From a virus: DNA of 13,887 nucleotides. The translations under genes were made by a program, and so were the position numbers. Positions 1,285 through 11,480 of the stretch are shown here, piece after piece. The stretch lies in the UHGV virus genome UHGV-0185895, one strand, 5' to 3'. The notes beneath the pieces were generated by a model. It was not told the origin of the DNA and made no database searches. It saw only the letters and a list, made by a program, of their open reading frames with translations. Every line of letters starts with the position of its first letter. Within the stretch, counting starts at the first letter, position 1.

Positions 1285-1842
1285 GTGGGTAATGAGCCAA
1301 TTTGGAAAGTAGAGCGTCAACCAGCCTGGTTGGTGGCCGCGATCAAGAAAACGATTACTGAACTGCCTGGAGGTTATGCCGAGGCGGCTGAATGGCTGGG
1401 TATAACTGAAAACGCCTTATTCAACCGCCTGCGCGTCGCTGGTGATCAGATCTTCCCGCTTGAGTGGGCGATGGTGCTGCAGCGTGCTGGTGGCGCAAGT
1501 CACATCACCGATGCGGTCGCGCGCCAGTCCGGCGGGGTCTTTGTTCCGCTAGCGGATATTGAAGAAGTGGATAAAGCAGATATCAATCAGGGACTGCTTG
1601 AGGTTATCGAACAGATTACAGCCTATTCGCAACAGATTCGGGTAGCGATCGAAGATGGTGTGATTGAGCCGCATGAACGCGCGGCGATCGATGGAGAGCT
1701 GTATAGCTCTATTCAAAAACTTCAGGAGCATTCGATTCTTGTTTATCGCATTTTCTGCCAGCCAGAAAAGAGTGACGCCCGCGAGTGTGCAGCTCCGGGC
1801 GTCGTGGCGAATAAATCAATGTGTATGGAGAAATCCGCATGA
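1285..1842 (+). CDS. Phage early regulatory protein, YdaT-like / CII-analogue (family assignment tentative)
   Basis: 185-aa ORF with GTG start and a G-rich RBS; sits immediately after the cro-like gene as in repressor/ydaS/ydaT arrangements; family assigned from synteny and general resemblance only. Confidence 0.45.
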
Positions 1843-2036
1843 GCAATTTAACCGCAAATATCCCGCGTTCGCAACTCCGCGCATTGCCGGTTCGTGGTGG
1901 CAAAGGCGCGGTCACGTATTGCTATGCCGTAAGAGTACCCGGTGGCTGGGAAGAGGTGAACCACAGTTTTACCGAGTGGGCTGTGGGTGACTATAGATCC
2001 AGAGGAGTGAAACCGAATGACTCAGCAATCAATTAA
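1839..2036 (+). CDS. Hypothetical small phage protein
   Basis: 65 aa from the ATG at 1839; ATGA start/stop overlap with the upstream gene (translational coupling); GGAG 10 nt upstream. Confidence 0.55.
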
Positions 2037-2721
2037 TCGTGCCCCGGCTGTTGGATTTTCCCCTGTGTTCGGCGGCGTAGTGACAATGAGCAGTCGGGAA
2101 ATCGCCGCTCTGGTTCAGAGTAAACATGGTGATGTCAAACGCTCCGCTGAGCGCCTGAAAGCTGCTGGTCTTTTAACCGCGCCGTTGGCGCAGTTCGATT
2201 TTGAGCATAACGGAAACGTGTATAAGGAGTACCGCTTCAATAAGCGCGACTCATTGGTTTTGGTTGCCCGTCTGTCTCCTGAGTTTACCGCGGCGGTTGT
2301 GGATCGCTGGCAGGAGCTTGAGAACAAATCGGCCATTCCTCAAACGTTACCTGAAGCCTTGCGACTCGCTGCCGATATGGCTGAACAGAATGCGCAGCTG
2401 GCGCATAAGGTTCAGCAGGATGCGCCTAAGGTAGCGTTTGTAAACCACTACGTAGAGTCCGGCGGTGCCAAAAGTCTGCGTGAGACGGCGAAGATCCTCA
2501 ACATGCCAGAAAAGGCCATGATTGACACGCTACTGCGTGACAAGGTGCTGTTTCGCCAGTCCGGCAATCTGCTCCCTCATGCCCTGCGCCAGCGTGAAGG
2601 TCTGTTTACCGTCAAAACGGGTACTTCAGATTTTGGTCATGCCTACACCCAAACGCGAGTAACCCCCCGCGGCGTCCAGTGGATTGCACAGCGCTATGCC
2701 TCTGAACTGATGGGAGGCTGA
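2017..2721 (+). CDS. Rha-family phage regulatory protein / antirepressor with KilA-C-type C-terminal domain
   Basis: N-terminal segment [26 protein letters not shown] is typical of Rha proteins; C-terminal half ([23 protein letters not shown]...) resembles antirepressor C-terminal domains; GAGGAG RBS at 2002-2007. Confidence 0.8.
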
Positions 2722-2722
2722 T

Positions 2723-2902
2723 GTGGAAGAGCATATTCAACCGATGGACCTACTTTATCGTGACCAACACGGCATCGTTGTGCATGTGACTGGATACGAC
2801 GCTGGCCGCCAGCGTGTTATTTACCGCCGCCCGGGATATGAGTGGGAGTGTGCTGCTCCGATGATCATCTTCCGCGCCCGATTCAAGAGGATTGATAAGT
2901 GA
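2723..2902 (+). CDS. Possible small ORF (59 aa from GTG 2723, or 52 aa from ATG 2744), not in the supplied ORF track
   Basis: GGGAGG 5 nt upstream of GTG 2723; its TGA stop (2900-2902) overlaps the GTG start (2899) of the replication gene as GTGA; fills an otherwise 177-bp gap in a tightly packed operon. Confidence 0.35.
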   Translation: MEEHIQPMDLLYRDQHGIVVHVTGYDAGRQRVIYRRPGYEWECAAPMIIFRARFKRIDK

Positions 2903-3780
2903 GCGTTAAATTATCCGCATATGTCTGGGATGGTTGCGCCGCGGCAGGCATCAAAGGCAATAAATTACTGATCATGCTTCGCCTGGCTGATTACGCCAGT
3001 GATGAGGGGATCGCATACCCAAGCGTTGCGACGATTGCGCGCCAGCTCGGCGCCGGGCGCAGTACCGTTATCACTTTGATCGGCGAGCTGGTTAAAGATG
3101 GCTGGCTGACCAAAAAAGAACGGCGTCTCGGTCAGCGCAGCACCAGCAATCTCTACACCTTGAATGTGGCTAAGCTGCGGCAGGCTGCAAATGAACATTA
3201 TGAGGGTCCAAAATCTGGACGTTCAGAATCTGAACCTTCGGAATCTGGACGTCCAGAAACTGAACGTCCGAAAGAGCCAAAAAAACAGGGTTCTCAGGGT
3301 CCAGAAACTGGACACGATCCGTCAGTAAATTCAAAACCAGATCCATCAGTAGGATCTAAACCCCTTTGTCCGGTTCCTGCGGAACCCGACCCGGAAGTGG
3401 TTATTACCGATCTTGCTAAGCAGGCCCTTTCACACCTGAACCTCACAACCGGTTCACGTTTTCAGGTATGCAAAACCTCCCTGGAACATATCCGGGGGAG
3501 GCTGCGCGAAGGATTTACACCTGACGAACTGGCGCTGGTGGTCGATTACAGCGCTGAGAAGTGGGGAAAAGATCTAAAAATGGCTGAATATCTGCGACCA
3601 ACCACGCTCTTTCTGCCGTCAAAATTCCCTGGATATCTCCAGTCTGCAACCAAGTGGGCCGCTGCCGGTCGCCCGAAATGTGTTGATGGAAAATGGGCTA
3701 AAGCCGGAAGTGAAGACCAGGCATTCAAGTCCAGCTATTCAGATGTCAATTACACCGTGCCAAAAGGATTCCGTTCATGA
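2899..3780 (+). CDS. Phage replication initiator-like protein (N-terminal HTH domain plus conserved phage C-terminal domain)
   Basis: 293 aa; N-terminal region (YVWDGCAAAGIKGNKLLIMLRLADYASDEGIAYPSVATIARQLGAGRSTVITLIGELVKDGWL) resembles replication-initiator HTH domains; low-complexity Ser/Pro/Glu linker encoded by iteron-like DNA repeats; GTG start. Confidence 0.7.
   Translation: MSVKLSAYVWDGCAAAGIKGNKLLIMLRLADYASDEGIAYPSVATIARQLGAGRSTVITLIGELVKDGWLTKKERRLGQRSTSNLYTLNVAKLRQAANEHYEGPKSGRSESEPSESGRPETERPKEPKKQGSQGPETGHDPSVNSKPDPSVGSKPLCPVPAEPDPEVVITDLAKQALSHLNLTTGSRFQVCKTSLEHIRGRLREGFTPDELALVVDYSAEKWGKDLKMAEYLRPTTLFLPSKFPGYLQSATKWAAAGRPKCVDGKWAKAGSEDQAFKSSYSDVNYTVPKGFRS
3212..3316. repeat. Iteron-like direct repeats inside the replication initiator gene; candidate origin of replication
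   Basis: AATCTGGACGTTCAGAATCTGAACC (3212-3236) and AATCTGGACGTCCAGAAACTGAACG (3242-3266) are 30 bp apart with about 22/25 identity; a third partial copy TCCAGAAACTGGAC lies at 3300-3313; perfect 12-bp palindrome CTGGACGTCCAG at 3245-3256. Confidence 0.45.
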
Positions 3781-4034
3781 AATCGCAGGTTATATCACTA
3801 ACCCCTGAACAACTGCGCCGCCAGGCTGAAGACATGCTCAAACGTGCCGAACAACTGGAAAAGACGGGGGCCACAAAGGACGCGCTTAAAAAAGCGCTGG
3901 TACCGGCGTTGCGTGAACTGATGCAGGCCAAACATCGCGCACAGCTGGCAGTTGATGAGCTGGTTGATAGTGTTGCAGATCTGGAAGGCCGAGTGTCTCA
4001 TGTCGAGAAAGTAGTGCAGGAGGTGCTGGCGTGA
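3777..4034 (+). CDS. Hypothetical small, predicted coiled-coil protein
   Basis: 85 aa; ATGA overlap with the upstream stop and GTGA overlap with the downstream start; charged heptad-like sequence. Confidence 0.55.
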   Translation: MKSQVISLTPEQLRRQAEDMLKRAEQLEKTGATKDALKKALVPALRELMQAKHRAQLAVDELVDSVADLEGRVSHVEKVVQEVLA

Positions 4035-4927
4035 CGAATGCATATTGTGAATCGCTGGCGGCCATGCGCGCTGCACCGTCCCATTTTCTGAAAGACGTTG
4101 GTGATCAGTGGCGCACGCCTGATCTGCTGTTCTGGGGCGTTAACGCAATGTTTGGACCGCTGGTACTGGACCTGTTTGCTGACGATAGCAACGCAAAATG
4201 CCCGGTATGGTTCACCGCCGAAGACAACGCGCTGACGCAAGATTGGTCCGCTCGTCTGGAAGAACTTGGCGGCGCTGGCTTTGGCAACCCACCGTATAGC
4301 CGCTCCCAGTACCACGAAAAGCAGGCGATAACTGGCATGACGCACATCATGAATTACGCGTCAGCGCAGCGTGAGAAGGGCGGGCGCTATGTATTTCTCA
4401 TCAAAGCAGCACCGAGCGAAACATGGTGGCCAGAAGATGCCGATCACATCATGTTTATTCGTGGTCGTATTGGATTCGACCTCCCGGCGTGGTTTGTCCC
4501 TGCTGATGATAAGCAAAAGCCCACCAGCGCGTTTTTTGCGGGCGCCATTGCCGTGTTTGATAAGGCCTGGCGCGGGGAGCGGTTCGGCTATATCCACCGT
4601 GCGGATCTGGAAAGGAAAGGGCAAGCGTTCATGATGCTGGCGCAGTTTGCTGTTGGCAATACTCCAGCACAGGTAATGTCGCAGCCGGCGGCAGTAGAAC
4701 CACTCGCAACGCCTACGCAATTACCAGAGACGGAATCGCGTATTTGGCCACTGGAGGTAGGGCTTGTGTTTCGACAGGTAGAAGGATCCGAAGGACTGGA
4801 GCCGTCCCAGCAAAACAAGCTGATGGCGCAAATTAACCAGCTGTGGCTGGAGCGTATGCCCACCAGCGAGATCATCACTGTTGCTGGTGGACTGGTAGAA
4901 AGCATGCAGGGGGTGAGCCATGCGTGA
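4031..4927 (+). CDS. Phage-type DNA N6-adenine methyltransferase with a C-terminal extension of roughly 100 aa
   Basis: 298 aa; catalytic NPPY motif (GFGNPPYS); N-terminal region (WRTPDLLF...LDLFADDSNAKC) resembles phage Dam-family methyltransferases; the C-terminal third has no motif I recognise. Confidence 0.8.
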   Translation: MTNAYCESLAAMRAAPSHFLKDVGDQWRTPDLLFWGVNAMFGPLVLDLFADDSNAKCPVWFTAEDNALTQDWSARLEELGGAGFGNPPYSRSQYHEKQAITGMTHIMNYASAQREKGGRYVFLIKAAPSETWWPEDADHIMFIRGRIGFDLPAWFVPADDKQKPTSAFFAGAIAVFDKAWRGERFGYIHRADLERKGQAFMMLAQFAVGNTPAQVMSQPAAVEPLATPTQLPETESRIWPLEVGLVFRQVEGSEGLEPSQQNKLMAQINQLWLERMPTSEIITVAGGLVESMQGVSHA

Positions 4928-6770
4928 GCTGATTGTTGATAATTTTGCTGGCGGTGGTGGGGCATCTACCGGGATAGAAATGGCGATCGGCCGCAGCGTT
5001 GATATTGCCATTAACCACGACGAAAACGCCGTGGCCATGCACCGGACGAATCACCCGGACACGCTTCATTATTGTGAAAACGTCTTTGACGTTGACCCTG
5101 TCGCTGCGACAGGTGGAAAGGCTGTCTGGTTTGCATGGTTCAGCCCGGATTGTACCCACTATTCAAAGGCGCGCGGCAGTAAACCGGTAAAACGTGAGAT
5201 TCGTGGGCTGGCTTGGGTATCTGTTCGCTGGGCATTGGATGTTCGCCCTCGTGTAATGGCTCTCGAAAATGTTGAAGAATTTAAAACGTGGGGCCCGCTG
5301 CTTTCATGTGAGATGCGTCCTGATCCTAAGCGTTCTGGTGAAACCTTCCTGGCATTTGTTGGAATGCTTTCCACTGGTATACCTGCGGATCACCCGGCTC
5401 TGTACGAATGTTGCGAATTTCTCGGCATATCCTCGGATGGCAAACAAGCCAAACGACTGATTGCTGGCCTCGGGTATAAGGTCGAATATCGCGAACTGCG
5501 TGCCAGTGATTATGGTGCTCCGACGATCCGCAAGCGATTCTTCATGTTGATGCGTTGTGACGATAAACCCATTGCCTGGCCGGGAGTCACTCACGGTGAC
5601 CCTAAATCCGCAGCAGTTAAATCCGGAAATTTGGCACCATGGCGGACAGCTGCTGAGTGTATCGACTGGTCTATTCCTGCACCATCGATATTTGACCGTA
5701 AAAAGCCGCTGGCCATTAACACGTTGAAACGGATAGCGCGCGGCATCCAGCGGTTTGTCGTCGAAAGTGATAATCCGTTCATCGTCAAATGCAACCACAC
5801 CACAACACGCGGTAAATATGATTGCTTCCGCGGACAGTCGCTGGCCGATCCCCTGCAAACCATCACCAAAACCCACGGTTATGCGCTGGCGTTACCGACG
5901 TTGGTTCCATTCCTGGCAGGTAATGGGGGTAGCGAGTACCAGGCGAAACCGCGGCCATTGAATAAACCCGCTCATACCATCCTTAAACAGTCTCGCTCCT
6001 GCCTGGTTGCGCCAGTTATCGCGCGTCAGTTCGGCGCCAGCATCGGCCACCGGGCGGATGAACCCAGCGCAACAATTACCGCTGGCGGCGGGGGGAAGTC
6101 ACAGCTTGTCGCGGCCACACTTATTCAGATGGGGTATGGCGAACGTGTAGGGCAGTCGCCGCGCGTTCTAAATCTGCGTAAACCGCTGGGAACAGTTGTA
6201 GCTGGTGGCAATAAATTTGCCGTAACAACTGCGTTTTTGGCGAAACACTACGGCGGGAACTATACCGGCCCGGGCGTCGGACTGGACGATCCTGCACACT
6301 CAGTTACCACAGTCGATCACCATGCGCTGGTTACGTCTCATCTGGTTAAACTGCGCGGTACCTGCCGCGATGGCCAGCGCACCAGTGAACCAATGCCGAC
6401 AATCACCGCTGGAGGTCAGCATGTTGGAGAGGTTCGCGCGCTGCTGGCGGCTAATGATTACGACGAGCGCCGGGCGGATCAGGTCAAAGAGTTCCTGAAT
6501 TCTTTTGGCGTCAGCGAACTGGTGACGATTAAGGGTATTGTTTACCGCATTGTTGATATCGGAATGCGCATGCTGCAGCCGCATGAACTTTACCGCGCTC
6601 AGGGATTCCCTGACTGGTACATCATTGATCGTGACTACCGCGGCAAGAGGTACTCGAAAGAGAAACAAGTCGCCAGGTGCGGAAACGCCGTGCCGCCGCC
6701 CTTTGCTGAGGCGATTGTAAGAGCAAACCTTCCTGAAATTTGTGTTTCTGGTCGGCGTGAGGTTGCATGA
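4920..6770 (+). CDS. DNA cytosine-5 methyltransferase-like protein with a long repeat-containing variable region
   Basis: 616 aa; motif I FAGGGG, motif VI ENV, motif IX-like RMLQPHELYRAQGFPDWY and motif X GNAV are present in canonical order, but motif IV reads FSPDCTHYS rather than PCQ; ATG overlaps the upstream stop (ATGCGTGA). Confidence 0.8.
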   Translation: MRELIVDNFAGGGGASTGIEMAIGRSVDIAINHDENAVAMHRTNHPDTLHYCENVFDVDPVAATGGKAVWFAWFSPDCTHYSKARGSKPVKREIRGLAWVSVRWALDVRPRVMALENVEEFKTWGPLLSCEMRPDPKRSGETFLAFVGMLSTGIPADHPALYECCEFLGISSDGKQAKRLIAGLGYKVEYRELRASDYGAPTIRKRFFMLMRCDDKPIAWPGVTHGDPKSAAVKSGNLAPWRTAAECIDWSIPAPSIFDRKKPLAINTLKRIARGIQRFVVESDNPFIVKCNHTTTRGKYDCFRGQSLADPLQTITKTHGYALALPTLVPFLAGNGGSEYQAKPRPLNKPAHTILKQSRSCLVAPVIARQFGASIGHRADEPSATITAGGGGKSQLVAATLIQMGYGERVGQSPRVLNLRKPLGTVVAGGNKFAVTTAFLAKHYGGNYTGPGVGLDDPAHSVTTVDHHALVTSHLVKLRGTCRDGQRTSEPMPTITAGGQHVGEVRALLAANDYDERRADQVKEFLNSFGVSELVTIKGIVYRIVDIGMRMLQPHELYRAQGFPDWYIIDRDYRGKRYSKEKQVARCGNAVPPPFAEAIVRANLPEICVSGRREVA

Positions 6771-7828
6771 GAGCGTTACTCACCCCTGAGATTGTGCCAC
6801 GCCTCGGCGTGGTTCTATTTAAGCCCGGCCGTGATCTGATGCACCTGTTTTCTGCCGGGCGTGTTTTAGTCGAGGCTGAACCACAAAATATGGCCCGCTT
6901 GCCATCTGGTCGTGTCCCTGATGCCCGACAACCTTTAGCGGAGGATTCCAGCCTGCACGTATTCTTTTCCGATGAGCGTGTGATTCGTGCTGCTGGTGGA
7001 TTGCCAGCGCTTGAACGGTGGCTGTTTCTCCGGCTGAAGAGGTGCCAGTACCCTCATTCCGAGTACCACCATAACGAGATGGTAACGATGCGACATCCGC
7101 CTGGTGCGTTGCTGGTGTGCTGGCATTGTGACAATAAACTGCGGGAGCAGTCGACTCCAGCTATCGAGGCGCTGGCACTTCGTAATGTAGTCGACTGGGT
7201 AATAGATACTGTGCTGATCGGGCTCGGTTATAACAAAGAACGCTCTCTTTCAATCGCAGAGTTGTGCTGGTGGGCAGTTCAGTCAGGTATAGCCGATGCC
7301 ATTACGGAGACGATGGCGCAGCGTGGTCTAGGGTTGCCTGAAGAGCCGTTCCTGTCGGTGTATAAAGAAAGCGATATCCGGCCTACTTTACCGGCCACCA
7401 GCATTCTGCAGGAGAAACTGCCAGCTGCAGGCACAGCAAGGCAATGCAGGCGCAACGAAAATGTCCAGGCGCACCAGGACCAGCCGAAGGGGCTTGCGCT
7501 GACTGCCGATCCGGAATCGCCGGAATCTTTCATGCTCAGGCCAAAGCGCCGTCGCTGGGTAAGCAAGACTTATACCGACTGGGTTAAGCATCAACCATGC
7601 GAATGCTGCCGCAGACCAGCTGACGATCCGCATCATGTCATCGGCCATGGCATGGGCGGTACCGCAACCAAAGCCCACGATCTCTTCGTGTTTCCTCTGT
7701 GCAGAGAGTGCCACGACGAGCTACATGCCGATGTTAACGCCTTTGAAGAGAAGAATGGCACGCAGTTGGAGCTGCTGTTCCGTTTTCTTGATCGAGCTAT
7801 GGCGATCGGCGCAATTATAAAAGCATAG
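6767..7828 (+). CDS. DUF968-like prophage protein (YdfU-like) with a C-terminal Cys/His cluster
   Basis: 353 aa; C-terminal HQPCECCRRPADDPHHVIGHG...PLCRECHDELH cluster typical of DUF968; ATGA overlap with the methyltransferase stop; lies directly upstream of the Q-like gene, as ydfU does relative to quuQ in E. coli Qin (recalled, not searched). Confidence 0.75.
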   Translation: MRALLTPEIVPRLGVVLFKPGRDLMHLFSAGRVLVEAEPQNMARLPSGRVPDARQPLAEDSSLHVFFSDERVIRAAGGLPALERWLFLRLKRCQYPHSEYHHNEMVTMRHPPGALLVCWHCDNKLREQSTPAIEALALRNVVDWVIDTVLIGLGYNKERSLSIAELCWWAVQSGIADAITETMAQRGLGLPEEPFLSVYKESDIRPTLPATSILQEKLPAAGTARQCRRNENVQAHQDQPKGLALTADPESPESFMLRPKRRRWVSKTYTDWVKHQPCECCRRPADDPHHVIGHGMGGTATKAHDLFVFPLCRECHDELHADVNAFEEKNGTQLELLFRFLDRAMAIGAIIKA

Positions 7829-7848
7829 TGTATGGAGCGTTGAGCAGT

Positions 7849-8547
7849 ATGAACCTACAAAACCTGGAATATACCCGTATTGAAGTGCGTCGAGCGTTGT
7901 TGGATTTATCCGGCGCAACAAAGGGACAACTCGAGGCATTCAGCGAGAACCCACCGGCAGATAAGAATAAAAATCCGCGGTGCTCTCGCAATCTTGTCGA
8001 TCTGGAAGGGGGGATTGGTTGTGGCCCGTCGGTGGTTAAGGCACTGACTACTCCAGTTTATGTGATGGAGACCCGCAGCCGCCGCCGGCCAATGCCGCCC
8101 ATCAATGATATTGAATTCGGTTATTCACCGTGGAGGCGCGCTGTAAACCTGCTGGAAGAACATCACCAGGCATGGGTGCGCTATTGCTATGGCTTCGATC
8201 TAAATTTCCGTTACCAGACGCTGATGTGTGAACACGTCTGGACTGAATATCAGAACTATCAAGTAGGCAGGGCGATCCAATCGAGAGTAATAAAAAAGCT
8301 TGTGGGGCTGGTCTGGCTGGCTGGCCAGGAGGTTGCAGCGACCCGGAATAATGAGACGTATAAAACCTACGCTGGCGCAGCTCTGGCGCGTATGGTTTCA
8401 GTTGACCGCTCAACCTGGAAAAGGGTTTATGCCGGGCATTGGGAACGACTTAAAACGGCTTTCATTGAGATGGATAACAACGCATTGCAGAACATCTACA
8501 CATATCATGAGCAAATAGAAGAGGTCAGAACGGAAAAATGTGATTAA
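7849..8547 (+). CDS. Q-like late-gene antiterminator (tentative)
   Basis: 233 aa from the ATG at 7849 (GGAG at 7834-7837); last gene of the early operon, followed by a promoter-like region and a strong intrinsic terminator; call rests mainly on position and synteny. Confidence 0.5.
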   Translation: MNLQNLEYTRIEVRRALLDLSGATKGQLEAFSENPPADKNKNPRCSRNLVDLEGGIGCGPSVVKALTTPVYVMETRSRRRPMPPINDIEFGYSPWRRAVNLLEEHHQAWVRYCYGFDLNFRYQTLMCEHVWTEYQNYQVGRAIQSRVIKKLVGLVWLAGQEVAATRNNETYKTYAGAALARMVSVDRSTWKRVYAGHWERLKTAFIEMDNNALQNIYTYHEQIEEVRTEKCD

Positions 8548-8601: not shown

Positions 8602-8638
8602 TTGAGGTAATTTGATATCTTGCCATTTTTATAAATAA

Positions 8639-8662
8639 CCTCGCTTCGGCGGGGTTTTTTGT
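8639..8662 (+). terminator. Intrinsic terminator (tR'-like) downstream of the Q-like gene
   Basis: Six-pair stem (one G-U) closed by a TTCG tetraloop, CCTCGC-TTCG-GCGGGG at 8639-8654, followed by a T6 run at 8655-8660. Confidence 0.6.
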
Positions 8663-8692
8663 TGGTTTATCTCGCACTCTCCCTCTCTCTGG

Positions 8693-8776: not shown

Positions 8777-8953
8777 GTGAAGCAAAGCGAGTTCAGGCGT
8801 TGGCTTGCAGCTCAAGGGGCAGAGTTTAAAGATGGTACCAACCACTTAAAAATTTACCTCAACGGCAAGCAAACGATAATGCCGAGACACCCGGGCAAGG
8901 AAATCCCGGAGCCGCTGAGAAAAGCAATTTTGAAGCAACTCGGTATCAAATAA
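8777..8953 (+). CDS. hicA: HicA-family toxin (mRNA interferase)
   Basis: 58 aa from the GTG at 8777 with AGGAGGAGG RBS; MKQSEFRRWL...HLK...MPRHPGKEIPEPLRKAILKQLGIK closely resembles HicA as recalled; below the 60-aa cut-off of the ORF track. Confidence 0.8.
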   Translation: MKQSEFRRWLAAQGAEFKDGTNHLKIYLNGKQTIMPRHPGKEIPEPLRKAILKQLGIK

Positions 8954-9000
8954 AAACCAGCCCTCCGGGGCTGGTACTCGTGGAGATTCACTTAATCAAT

Positions 9001-9408
9001 ATGAGATATCCGGTAAATTTTGAGCATGACGAAACCGGCTGGGCGGTATTTTTCCCAGATATCCCCGAGGCAATGACGGGAGGGGCAACCAGGGAGGAAG
9101 CGTTAGAAATGGCGCAGGATGCCCTGGTTACGGCGTTTGATTTCTATTTTGACGACCGCCGGGAGATCCCCGCACCTTCAGCAGAGGGTGAGGCGTTTGT
9201 TGAAGTGCCATCAAGCGTGGCGGCGAAGGTATTATTGCTAAACCGCCTGGTCAGTACCAATACCAGTAACGCTGAACTGGCCCGCATGATTAATACGCGC
9301 CCTCAGGAGGTACAGCGAATCGTGTCTCTTGGTCATAGCACCAAGATCGACACCATTCAAAAAGCACTATCGGTACTAGGACAAAAAATGGAAATAATTG
9401 TCCGGTAA
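9001..9408 (+). CDS. hicB: HicB-family antitoxin (N-terminal HicB fold, C-terminal DNA-binding domain)
   Basis: 135 aa from the ATG at 9001 (MRYPV...); DIPEA, TAFDFYF and VAAKVLLLN segments match E. coli HicB as recalled; lies downstream of hicA in the usual order. Confidence 0.8.
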   Translation: MRYPVNFEHDETGWAVFFPDIPEAMTGGATREEALEMAQDALVTAFDFYFDDRREIPAPSAEGEAFVEVPSSVAAKVLLLNRLVSTNTSNAELARMINTRPQEVQRIVSLGHSTKIDTIQKALSVLGQKMEIIVR

Positions 9409-10843: not shown

Positions 10844-11029
10844 ATGACCTTAGCCCAGTGCATTAAAATGCAGGAAGATGCAATATGTAACAAGGATGTG
10901 GAGGTTATAGATCTGAGAATGATTAATATCTGGGGACAGCGGCAAGCACCATGTGATAGCAAGCCGCTGATGGGGGAGCCGCACTCAGAAACCACAGTAG
11001 TATTTCTACCGGCATGGCTTAACTATTAA
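10844..11029 (+). CDS. Questionable small ORF (61 aa), AT-rich, convergent with the protease gene
   Basis: GAGGA 5 nt upstream of the ATG; 3' end overlaps the protease gene 3' end by 11 nt; no recognisable motif. Confidence 0.3.
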   Translation: MTLAQCIKMQEDAICNKDVEVIDLRMINIWGQRQAPCDSKPLMGEPHSETTVVFLPAWLNY

Positions 11030-11480
11030 ACAACAACTCGAATTTGTTATTTTTGTAGTCAAGCGTGAATGAGCAGTGTTGAAGAAACTCCATCCCAAGA
11101 ATTGCTTTGAAGTGTCGCCCATTATTAACTAAAGGGGTTGCATGAAATTCTTGAGAAAAAAGGCGCCCGTCGTTTGTTAGGCTCATAACCGCCCTGCGAG
11201 CTGTTGAATTAATTGTAGAAGTTCCTCCCCGAACTTGGATTTCGCTGGTAACTGGGAGTTCTAATTCATCAGCAAAATCATTATCGATATAACAGGCGGT
11301 AGCACCAGTATCGATCAGAACCATAGCTGATTCATGTTTCTCGGGGTTCGGTATTTGATAATGATTATCTTTGTCAACCGCTGCAAATGTGACAACTATC
11401 ACGGGTACAGCCATTGGTTGCGGTGTAGTTGAAAATTCCCCGCTGCTGTTCATAAAGTACACTGGTAAATTAATTGCCAT
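11019..11480 (-). CDS. Retropepsin-like aspartic protease (single-domain, presumably active as a homodimer)
   Basis: 153 aa; active-site signature LIDTGAT (D57-T58-G59-A60), Gly-rich flap VRGGTS and C-terminal ILGMEFL motif; opposite strand to all neighbours; sampled 60-nt stretches give roughly 35-45% GC against about 60% near the terminase genes. Confidence 0.7.
   Translation of the reverse strand: MAINLPVYFMNSSGEFSTTPQPMAVPVIVVTFAAVDKDNHYQIPNPEKHESAMVLIDTGATACYIDNDFADELELPVTSEIQVRGGTSTINSTARRAVMSLTNDGRLFSQEFHATPLVNNGRHFKAILGMEFLQHCSFTLDYKNNKFELLFNS

Follow-up and report, generated by a model that had tools for sequence, protein, structure and literature searches.

This study concerns the interval 4031-7828 of UHGV-0185895, a virus genome stretch of 13,887 nucleotides (nt), which as a whole is called the window and whose numbering is used throughout. 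In this interval three genes on the plus strand encode a phage-type N6-adenine DNA methyltransferase (Dam), a C5-cytosine DNA methyltransferase (C5 methylase) and a DUF968 protein of the YdfU/PdcB type (Table 1). The window belongs to a phage-sized contig of 39.4 kb, assembled from run SRR29106598, and reads as a lambdoid temperate phage, probably of a Klebsiella/Raoultella-type host. Matches to Pfam and PHROG revealed the lambdoid markers of the window, namely an S24 repressor, cII, Ant, an O-like replication protein, Q, a holin, a lysozyme and Nu1. The phages most closely related to it are prophages of Klebsiella, Raoultella, Kluyvera and Citrobacter. Neither the phage collection nor the complete E. 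coli genomes contained a nucleotide match at 80% identity or above.

An earlier note on this DNA, made from its letters alone, had drawn attention to the overlaps at the gene junctions, and these were found exactly as described: GTGA at 4031-4034, ATGCGTGA at 4920-4927 and ATGA at 6767-6770. The first of them joins orf85 to Dam and hence lies outside the Dam/C5/DUF968 trio. An unbroken chain of gaps of at most 1 nt runs from Ant/Rha (2017) to the stop of the DUF968 gene (7828), the successive gaps being +1, -4, -4, -4, -8 and -4 nt. A mechanical reading would start the following gene, Q, at a GTG overlapping DUF968 by 1 nt; the gene call of the source contig places the start at ATG 7849, 20 nt past the DUF968 stop and with a GGAG Shine-Dalgarno sequence, and this ATG is probably the true one. 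No promoter-like site was found on the plus strand between 4031 and 7828. The sole strong terminator on this strand lies 3' of Q and consists of an eight-pair stem with five G-C pairs (8637-8656), followed by TTTTGTTGGT; its position would fit that of a terminator which Q overrides. Since the chain of overlaps spans Ant/Rha to DUF968, the overlaps describe the whole early-right operon and not a delimited three-gene unit, and overlapping stops and starts of this kind are ordinary tight operon packing. Of the proposal that the three genes are expressed in a coupled manner as a unit, co-transcription and translational linkage of early genes are retained, whereas the trio is not set apart, the chain beginning already at Ant/Rha.

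Table 1 Features of the window discussed in the text (aa, amino acids; pLDDT, predicted local distance difference test score)
Feature	Position	Strand	Basis or remark
S24 repressor	278-952	minus	Pfam/PHROG; Cro-like gene next in gene order
cII	1285-1842		Pfam/PHROG
Ant/Rha	2017-2721	+	Pfam/PHROG matches
orf59	2723-2902	+	early-right operon member
O-like replication initiator	2899-3780	+	Pfam/PHROG matches
orf85 (85 aa)	3777-4034	+	last member before Dam
Dam, phage-type N6-adenine DNA methyltransferase, 298 aa	4031-4927	+	PF05869, TIGR01712
Dam C-terminal module, ~65 aa (residues 233-298)	4727-4924	+	matches 85-aa phrog_16025
C5-cytosine DNA methyltransferase, 616 aa	4920-6770	+	PF00145
Six-unit tandem array (residues 308-512)	5841-6455	+	unit hidden Markov model
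DUF968 protein, YdfU/PdcB type, 353 aa	6767-7828	+	PF06147, phrog_96
DUF968 N-terminal domain (residues 55-160)	6929-7246	+	AlphaFold2, pLDDT 67-96 (10-residue blocks, residues 51-160)
C-terminal zinc-bound His-Me (HNH) finger (residues 273-330)	7583-7756	+	predicted
Q-type late-gene antiterminator	7849-8547	+	PF06323; start from source-contig gene call
Intrinsic terminator 3' of Q	8637-8666	+	stem, then TTTTGTTGGT

The Dam and C5 methylases

Dam is a member of the phage-type adenine methylases, with 141.8 bits against PF05869 (cutoff 28.1) and 186.7 bits against the equivalog model TIGR01712 (cutoff 97.05). Its S-adenosylmethionine-binding motif (DLFA, residue 47) and its catalytic motif (NPPY, residue 86) are intact and are shared with the phage Dams of the T1/HP1/VT2 type (PF05869, TIGR01712), from which the Dam of the window differs by carrying a further module of about 65 aa at its C terminus. 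The usual target of phage Dam-like enzymes in Gammaproteobacteria is GATC (PMC5537653). No solved structures related to this Dam were found.

The Pfam domain occupies residues 17-199, leaving a tail of 99 aa, and the description of this tail in the earlier note as an extension of roughly 100 aa without a known motif agrees with our domain search, in which it gave no match in Pfam even at an E-value of 10. It is composed of a Pro-rich linker (residues 206-232) and the conserved module listed in Table 1, which is common in the Dams of enterobacterial prophages and is contained in phrog_111 as well as in the full-length methylase model of PADLOC (MTase_II, PDLC03332, of whose 297 positions 1-293 are covered on Dam). 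The module is separable and conserved: at one related locus (L006, 4280-4537) it forms a free-standing open reading frame (ORF) of 85 aa ahead of the C5 gene, at another (L017, 5141-6460) about 190 extra residues are inserted between it and the methylase domain of a 439-aa Dam, and the Dam of phage mEp460, with 217 aa, is too short to hold it. Stand-alone homologues of the tail exist, as a word-index search returned 27 proteins, all of them short or partial. Upstream of its free-standing tail ORF, L006 carries another ORF of 200 aa.

The C5 methylase matches PF00145 with 76 bits (cutoff 22) in three stretches, which are split by a long variable region. Its core motifs form a complete and intact set in canonical order, namely I (FAGGGG, residue 9), IV (PDC, 76), VI (ENV, 116), VIII (TIRKR, 202-206), IX (MLQPHELYRAQGFP, 551-564) and X (GNAV, 588). 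The family comprises at least 2,502 clusters (50% identity; E <1e-30), and homologous over the full length are the Aeromonas proteins ARM81mr_p29 (51% identity, covering 100% of the query) and ARM81ld_p31 (44%). Both are cited as m5C methylases of relaxed specificity by Decewicz et al. (PMC5537653), and similar large enzymes (~700 aa) of Paracoccus prophages are reported (PMC5537653, PMC3925955) to protect partly CCNGG, CCWGG, AGCT, CCGG and GCN7GC. Because relatives of the C5 methylase are reported to have relaxed specificity, protective methylation is its likely role.

The two ARM81 proteins carry the same kind of unit array as the C5 methylase (described below) and are likewise encoded among early or replication genes. 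The ARM81 and Paracoccus genes differ from the locus studied here in standing alone, with neither Dam nor DUF968 beside them, and their specificity comes from restriction-protection assays; the Paracoccus proteins JCM7686_0772 and JCM7686_2655 are likened to the C5 methylase on the basis of these texts. With catalytic motifs intact in both enzymes and no restriction partner within the window, Dam and the C5 methylase can be regarded as two orphan methyltransferases, as had been supposed.

The tandem unit array of the C5 methylase

Motifs VIII and IX of the C5 methylase are separated by a variable region of about 340 residues, which holds a tandem array of six units (residues 308-341, 347-380, 379-412, 419-451, 455-488 and 490-512), each of about 34 aa, starting with PxxT[IV] and continuing with two hydrophobic strands. 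Self-BLAST of the variable region gave no significant internal repeats, and profile methods were needed to reveal the units. A 34-residue hidden Markov model (HMM) detects all six with independent E-values from 7.5e-5 to 1.5e-14 and finds 1,008 units in 151 sequences (the query and 150 diverse representatives of the family), while shuffled copies gave no matches. Unit-versus-unit profile alignment runs in register (best E-value 2.5e-5).

Copy number varies from 1 to 12 per protein, the median protein length increases by about 35 aa with each unit, and close homologues (576-716 aa) are separated by insertions or deletions of whole units. Unit types recur in a partly conserved order (...D-C...H-B-A), and 152 line-ups were counted in 157 proteins. 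The C5 methylase of the window shows the line-up R.DCHB, as against R.OHBA in the Citrobacter rodentium phage phiNP (OR565852), and ARM81mr_p29 and ARM81ld_p31 have five units each. The unit may resemble the TL recognition loop of M.HhaI; a search of the unit profile against solved structures gave nothing at E 10 or better. An AlphaFold2 model of the C5 methylase, computed from an alignment of 37 sequences, was too poor to use (mean pLDDT 45). No description of the repeat array was found in the literature covered, which did not include the account of the ARM81 phages in J Gen Virol.

We tentatively propose, as an idea that is possible but rather doubtful, that the array is a modular DNA-recognition device, in which every type of unit would add or broaden a target specificity and in which gain, loss and reshuffling of units would tune the escape from restriction. 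It would then be an independently arisen counterpart, in Gram-negative bacteria and actinobacteria, of the multispecific methylases of Bacillus phages. If true, this would explain the relaxed specificity of the C5 relatives; a countable and reshuffled array could moreover be related to sets of methylation motifs, which is relevant to the host range of Klebsiella phages and to phage therapy.

The enzymes of the Bacillus phages SPbeta (MtbP), SPR and phi3T resemble the C5 methylase of the window in that a single catalytic core is joined to a long variable region, and all of them are orphan enzymes carried by phages, with protection against many restriction systems as their supposed role. Motifs of the PxxT[LIV] kind are also shared, occurring twice in the variable region of MtbP (SPTLTT and PAFTVNT) and six times in that of the window protein. 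The unit HMM found no unit in MtbP, and BLASTP of the C5 methylase against MtbP aligned core motifs only (best E-value 0.016), with no detectable relationship between the variable regions. The recognition domains of the Bacillus enzymes are mutually dissimilar, unlike the 34-aa consensus and the partly fixed order observed here.

The DUF968 protein

The third protein matches PF06147 with 231.7 bits (cutoff 27.8; residues 161-348) and phrog_96 over residues 1-350. Its identity to YdfU-type proteins of E. coli phages amounts to 55%, and that to PdcB of P1-like phages to 25% over the full length. Its C-terminal Cys/His set (C278-x2-C281, H289-H290, C312-x2-C315-H316...H320) had been suspected to form an HNH-type module, and residues, fold and the class assigned in the literature confirm a His-Me finger, with the beta-beta-alpha fold, the catalytic His and the zinc ligands (CxxC...CxxC) in place. 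H290 is invariant out to PdcB of P1, and conservation reaches at least 90% at H289, H316 and H320; between the two strands of the finger, H304 and D305 are invariant as well. Judged from the predicted model, the closest solved fold is that of phage P1 Ref (PDB 3plw), a RecA-dependent HNH nuclease, with strong similarity, whereas weaker fold matches include the modification-dependent nucleases McrA and ScoMcrA. Together with Ref, the closest known systems are lambda Rap/NinG and DLP12 YbcO (PDB 3g27). The DUF968 protein is three times longer than Ref and possesses an extra N-terminal Cys/His domain.

In this N-terminal domain, which is modelled with confidence, a second conserved cluster was recognised (C93, H101, H102, C118-x2-C121 and N123) with a beta-beta-alpha element at residues 105-125; C93, C118 and W119 remain invariant when P1-type PdcB is added to the comparison. 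Aligned by hhalign, this region and the C-terminal finger are in register, albeit weakly (E 0.095), and the cluster may be a second, divergent His-Me finger, which we note as a lead only.

No experimental study of DUF968 was found in the literature. DUF968 and DUF1364/YbcO have been placed in the His-Me finger superfamily, with RusA, Q and antirepressors as typical neighbours, and for DUF968 a part in recombination has been proposed, similar to that played by NinG and the RecA-dependent nucleases (PMC5714182); fusions of DUF968 to Erf, Rad52 and RusA have also been noted (PMC4118853). The constant neighbour of the DUF968 gene is a late-gene regulator. It immediately precedes Q both here (6767-8547) and in lambdoid relatives. 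In the P1-like phage RCS47, pdcB follows phd-doc-pdcA and directly precedes lpa, which encodes the late promoter activator, and the genes annotated within 3 kb on both sides include no methylase. The Ref-like closest fold and the place before a late-gene regulator fit a function in recombination or replication and not in methylation. For YdfU/PdcB, an uncharacterised family of an E. coli K-12 prophage and of P1, this gives a concrete lead, namely a Ref-like nuclease encoded before the late-gene switch.

Two side observations concern the same family. Full-length DUF968 genes lie just upstream of a late-gene regulator in two unrelated phage types (L081, 3001-4585; L077, 4001-5756). The DUF968 homologue of phiNP (L075, 5225-6292) is annotated as 'antitermination protein Q', and the real Q gene follows it; the label looks like a misannotation.

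Mosaic distribution and function of the three genes

The gene order of the window also occurs in phiNP and in seven fetched loci. phiNP and prophages of Klebsiella, Raoultella, Kluyvera and Citrobacter share the order Rha/Ant, O, Dam (~293 aa), long C5, DUF968 and Q, their proteins being 69-92% identical and their Dam and C5 genes likewise overlapping by 8 nt. No experimental study of phiNP-type regions was found in the literature, and the three genes receive no discussion in the phiNP paper. The ninR regions of the SfV/mEp460/Qin type have the same operon position, the same Dam family and a DUF968 of the YdfU type (55% identity) directly before Q; they differ in having three other genes between Dam and DUF968 and no C5 methylase, while the window lacks LexA-like, RusA and KilA-N genes.

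To score how the genes are distributed, 128 loci were used, in which DUF968 is 53-80% identical to the query and at least 5 kb of upstream sequence is available. Upstream of DUF968, 61 of these carry Dam only (48%), 44 Dam and C5, one C5 only and 22 neither (17%), so that Dam is present in 82% and the C5 methylase in 35%. In 44 of the 45 loci with a C5 gene it directly follows Dam. Dam and the C5 methylase are thus a real pair and the one stable link; their 8-nt overlap recurs in phiNP and in phage Flotzy. The exact layout of the window is found in 7 of the 68 loci scored in a first set, and 24 of these 68 have 1.4-2.4 kb between the methylase pair and DUF968. Where this gap was annotated (L001 and L046), it is filled by a LexA DNA-binding domain/RusA gene and a KilA-N gene, and the same set of LexA-like, RusA and KilA-N genes lies between Dam and DUF968 in phage mEp460. 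Among phage records, the Dam family occurs in 437 (including ~59-kb Salmonella phages such as iEPS5 and Proteus and Staphylococcus phages), the C5 family in 350 (mostly Gordonia, Mycobacterium, Pseudomonas and Arthrobacter phages) and DUF968 in 185 (mostly Escherichia, Vibrio and Klebsiella phages), and in these searches many phages with the Dam or the C5 family gave no DUF968 match. Across the related loci Dam, the C5 methylase and DUF968 behave as separate mosaic modules, and mosaic gene order accounts for DUF968 lying beside the methylases. An independent adjacency of Dam and DUF968 was noticed in Vibrio phage 1.232.O (L082, 2465-3372), where the gene of a 178-aa Dam from the same family overlaps by one base with that of a DUF968 protein of 123 aa, beginning there, which aligns to the finger region of the query alone.

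Taken as a whole, we consider it likely that the interval is a ninR-like cargo interval of a lambdoid phage, with a protective pair of Dam and C5 methylase and a separate nuclease-like protein of the YdfU/PdcB type. This interpretation builds on gene identities, motifs, an operon layout, a mosaic distribution and a fold similarity that were directly observed. The interval would be the counterpart of lambda ninR, flanked on the early-right transcript by the replication initiator and by Q; the two orphan methylases would be made during lytic growth and most likely methylate progeny phage DNA, which would then survive restriction in the next host, and the DUF968 protein would most likely use its His-Me finger to cut recombination or replication intermediates, like lambda Rap (NinG) and P1 Ref, acting just before late gene expression. 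Of the suggestion that the locus is an anti-restriction module, the protective role of the methylases is thus plausible, their C5 relatives being cited as enzymes of relaxed specificity, whereas DUF968 would form no part of it. Several points weigh against our interpretation. The reports of relaxed specificity, taken from citing text, concern relatives at 44-51% identity or Paracoccus proteins that were not directly compared. Dam accompanies DUF968 in 82% of the related loci and abuts it in the distant Vibrio phage, which makes a functional link between these two conceivable. The DUF968 protein scores 17.9 bits against PF16786 (RecA_dep_nuc, the family of P1 Ref) and its homologue P0236 25.9 bits, both below the threshold of 26.9 bits, and its structural model is partly of low confidence (mean pLDDT 69). 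Finally, we infer the enzyme activities, the target sequences and the substrate of the nuclease.

The adjacency and overlap of the three genes, the upstream Dam in most loci and the short DUF968 gene abutting Dam in the Vibrio phage would suit a single system, in which a DUF968 nuclease with an HNH fold of the kind used by McrA and ScoMcrA acts according to the Dam and C5 marks, for example by degrading unmethylated DNA of the host or of rival phages. We hold this to be very improbable: among the 128 loci 22 have no methylase upstream and 61 no C5 beside their Dam, RusA and KilA-N genes are commonly interposed, PdcB of the P1-like phage has no methylase among the annotated genes within 3 kb, and the many phages with Dam or C5 belong mostly to groups without a DUF968 match. 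Consistent joint inheritance of nuclease and methylase genes, as in restriction-modification or modification-dependent defence, was not the pattern of the 128 loci, the best fold match of DUF968 is a recombination nuclease and not a restriction enzyme, and PADLOC returned no family for it at E 0.01 or better. A defence system was rejected as a candidate on the co-occurrence pattern and on this missing PADLOC match, and with it falls the modification-dependent system with DUF968 as nuclease partner that the earlier note had offered as an option.

A different role for the methylases would be the regulation of the phage itself (replication timing, packaging or the choice between lysis and lysogeny), comparable to the packaging Dam sites of P1 or to the methylases of alphaproteobacterial phages that mimic CcrM. 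The methylase genes do sit right after the replication initiator; phage methylase genes have been observed to cluster in replication modules, for which a regulatory role was proposed (Decewicz et al., PMC5537653), and P1 requires Dam methylation for packaging according to a review (PMC12707154). Yet the relaxed specificity reported for the C5 relatives suits broad protection better than site-specific regulation, and the C5 methylase, occurring in just 35% of the related phages, is dispensable for the basic life cycle; regulation as the main function therefore seems unlikely to us, even though protection and regulation are not mutually exclusive. The DUF968 protein, in turn, could be a zinc-finger DNA-binding or transcription cofactor of the late-gene regulator instead of a nuclease, in keeping with its position right before Q in lambdoid phages and right before lpa in a P1-like phage, with the labelling of some homologues as antitermination or regulatory proteins and with an N-terminal domain that has no recognisable catalytic fold. 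This we find quite improbable, as residues expected of an active HNH site are conserved (H290, H289, H316 and H320), H304 and D305 between the finger strands are likewise invariant, the closest fold is that of an active nuclease, and the Q annotations look like carry-over. A specific partnership is moreover made less likely by the fact that the same DUF968 type precedes Q proteins of more than one family (PF06323 here, PF03589 in L046).

The three families and their gene order are already on record, and the finding of a ninR-like cargo interval is in itself ordinary. Its value is mainly negative: where genes of a lambdoid early operon overlap at their stop and start codons, this should not be taken as evidence of a functional module.

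Some further genes of the window deserve mention. The product of orf85 matches just the last ~80 positions of the 204-position profile phrog_2565. Past Q, the gene order continues with hicA/hicB, holin, lysozyme, a spanin-like DUF2514 protein and Nu1. The pair of hicA toxin (8777-8953) and hicB antitoxin (together 8777-9408) thus lies between Q and the holin gene, an interval that is the site of toxin genes in Stx phages; the mechanical ORF of hicB starts at 8980, and the gene call of the source contig gives a product of 135 aa. On the minus strand, an ORF of 153 aa (11019-11480) matches the retroviral-type aspartyl protease domains PF13975, PF13650 and PF08284; it is located in a stretch of low GC content (0.41) that separates the lysis genes from Nu1, and looks like an acquired accessory gene.

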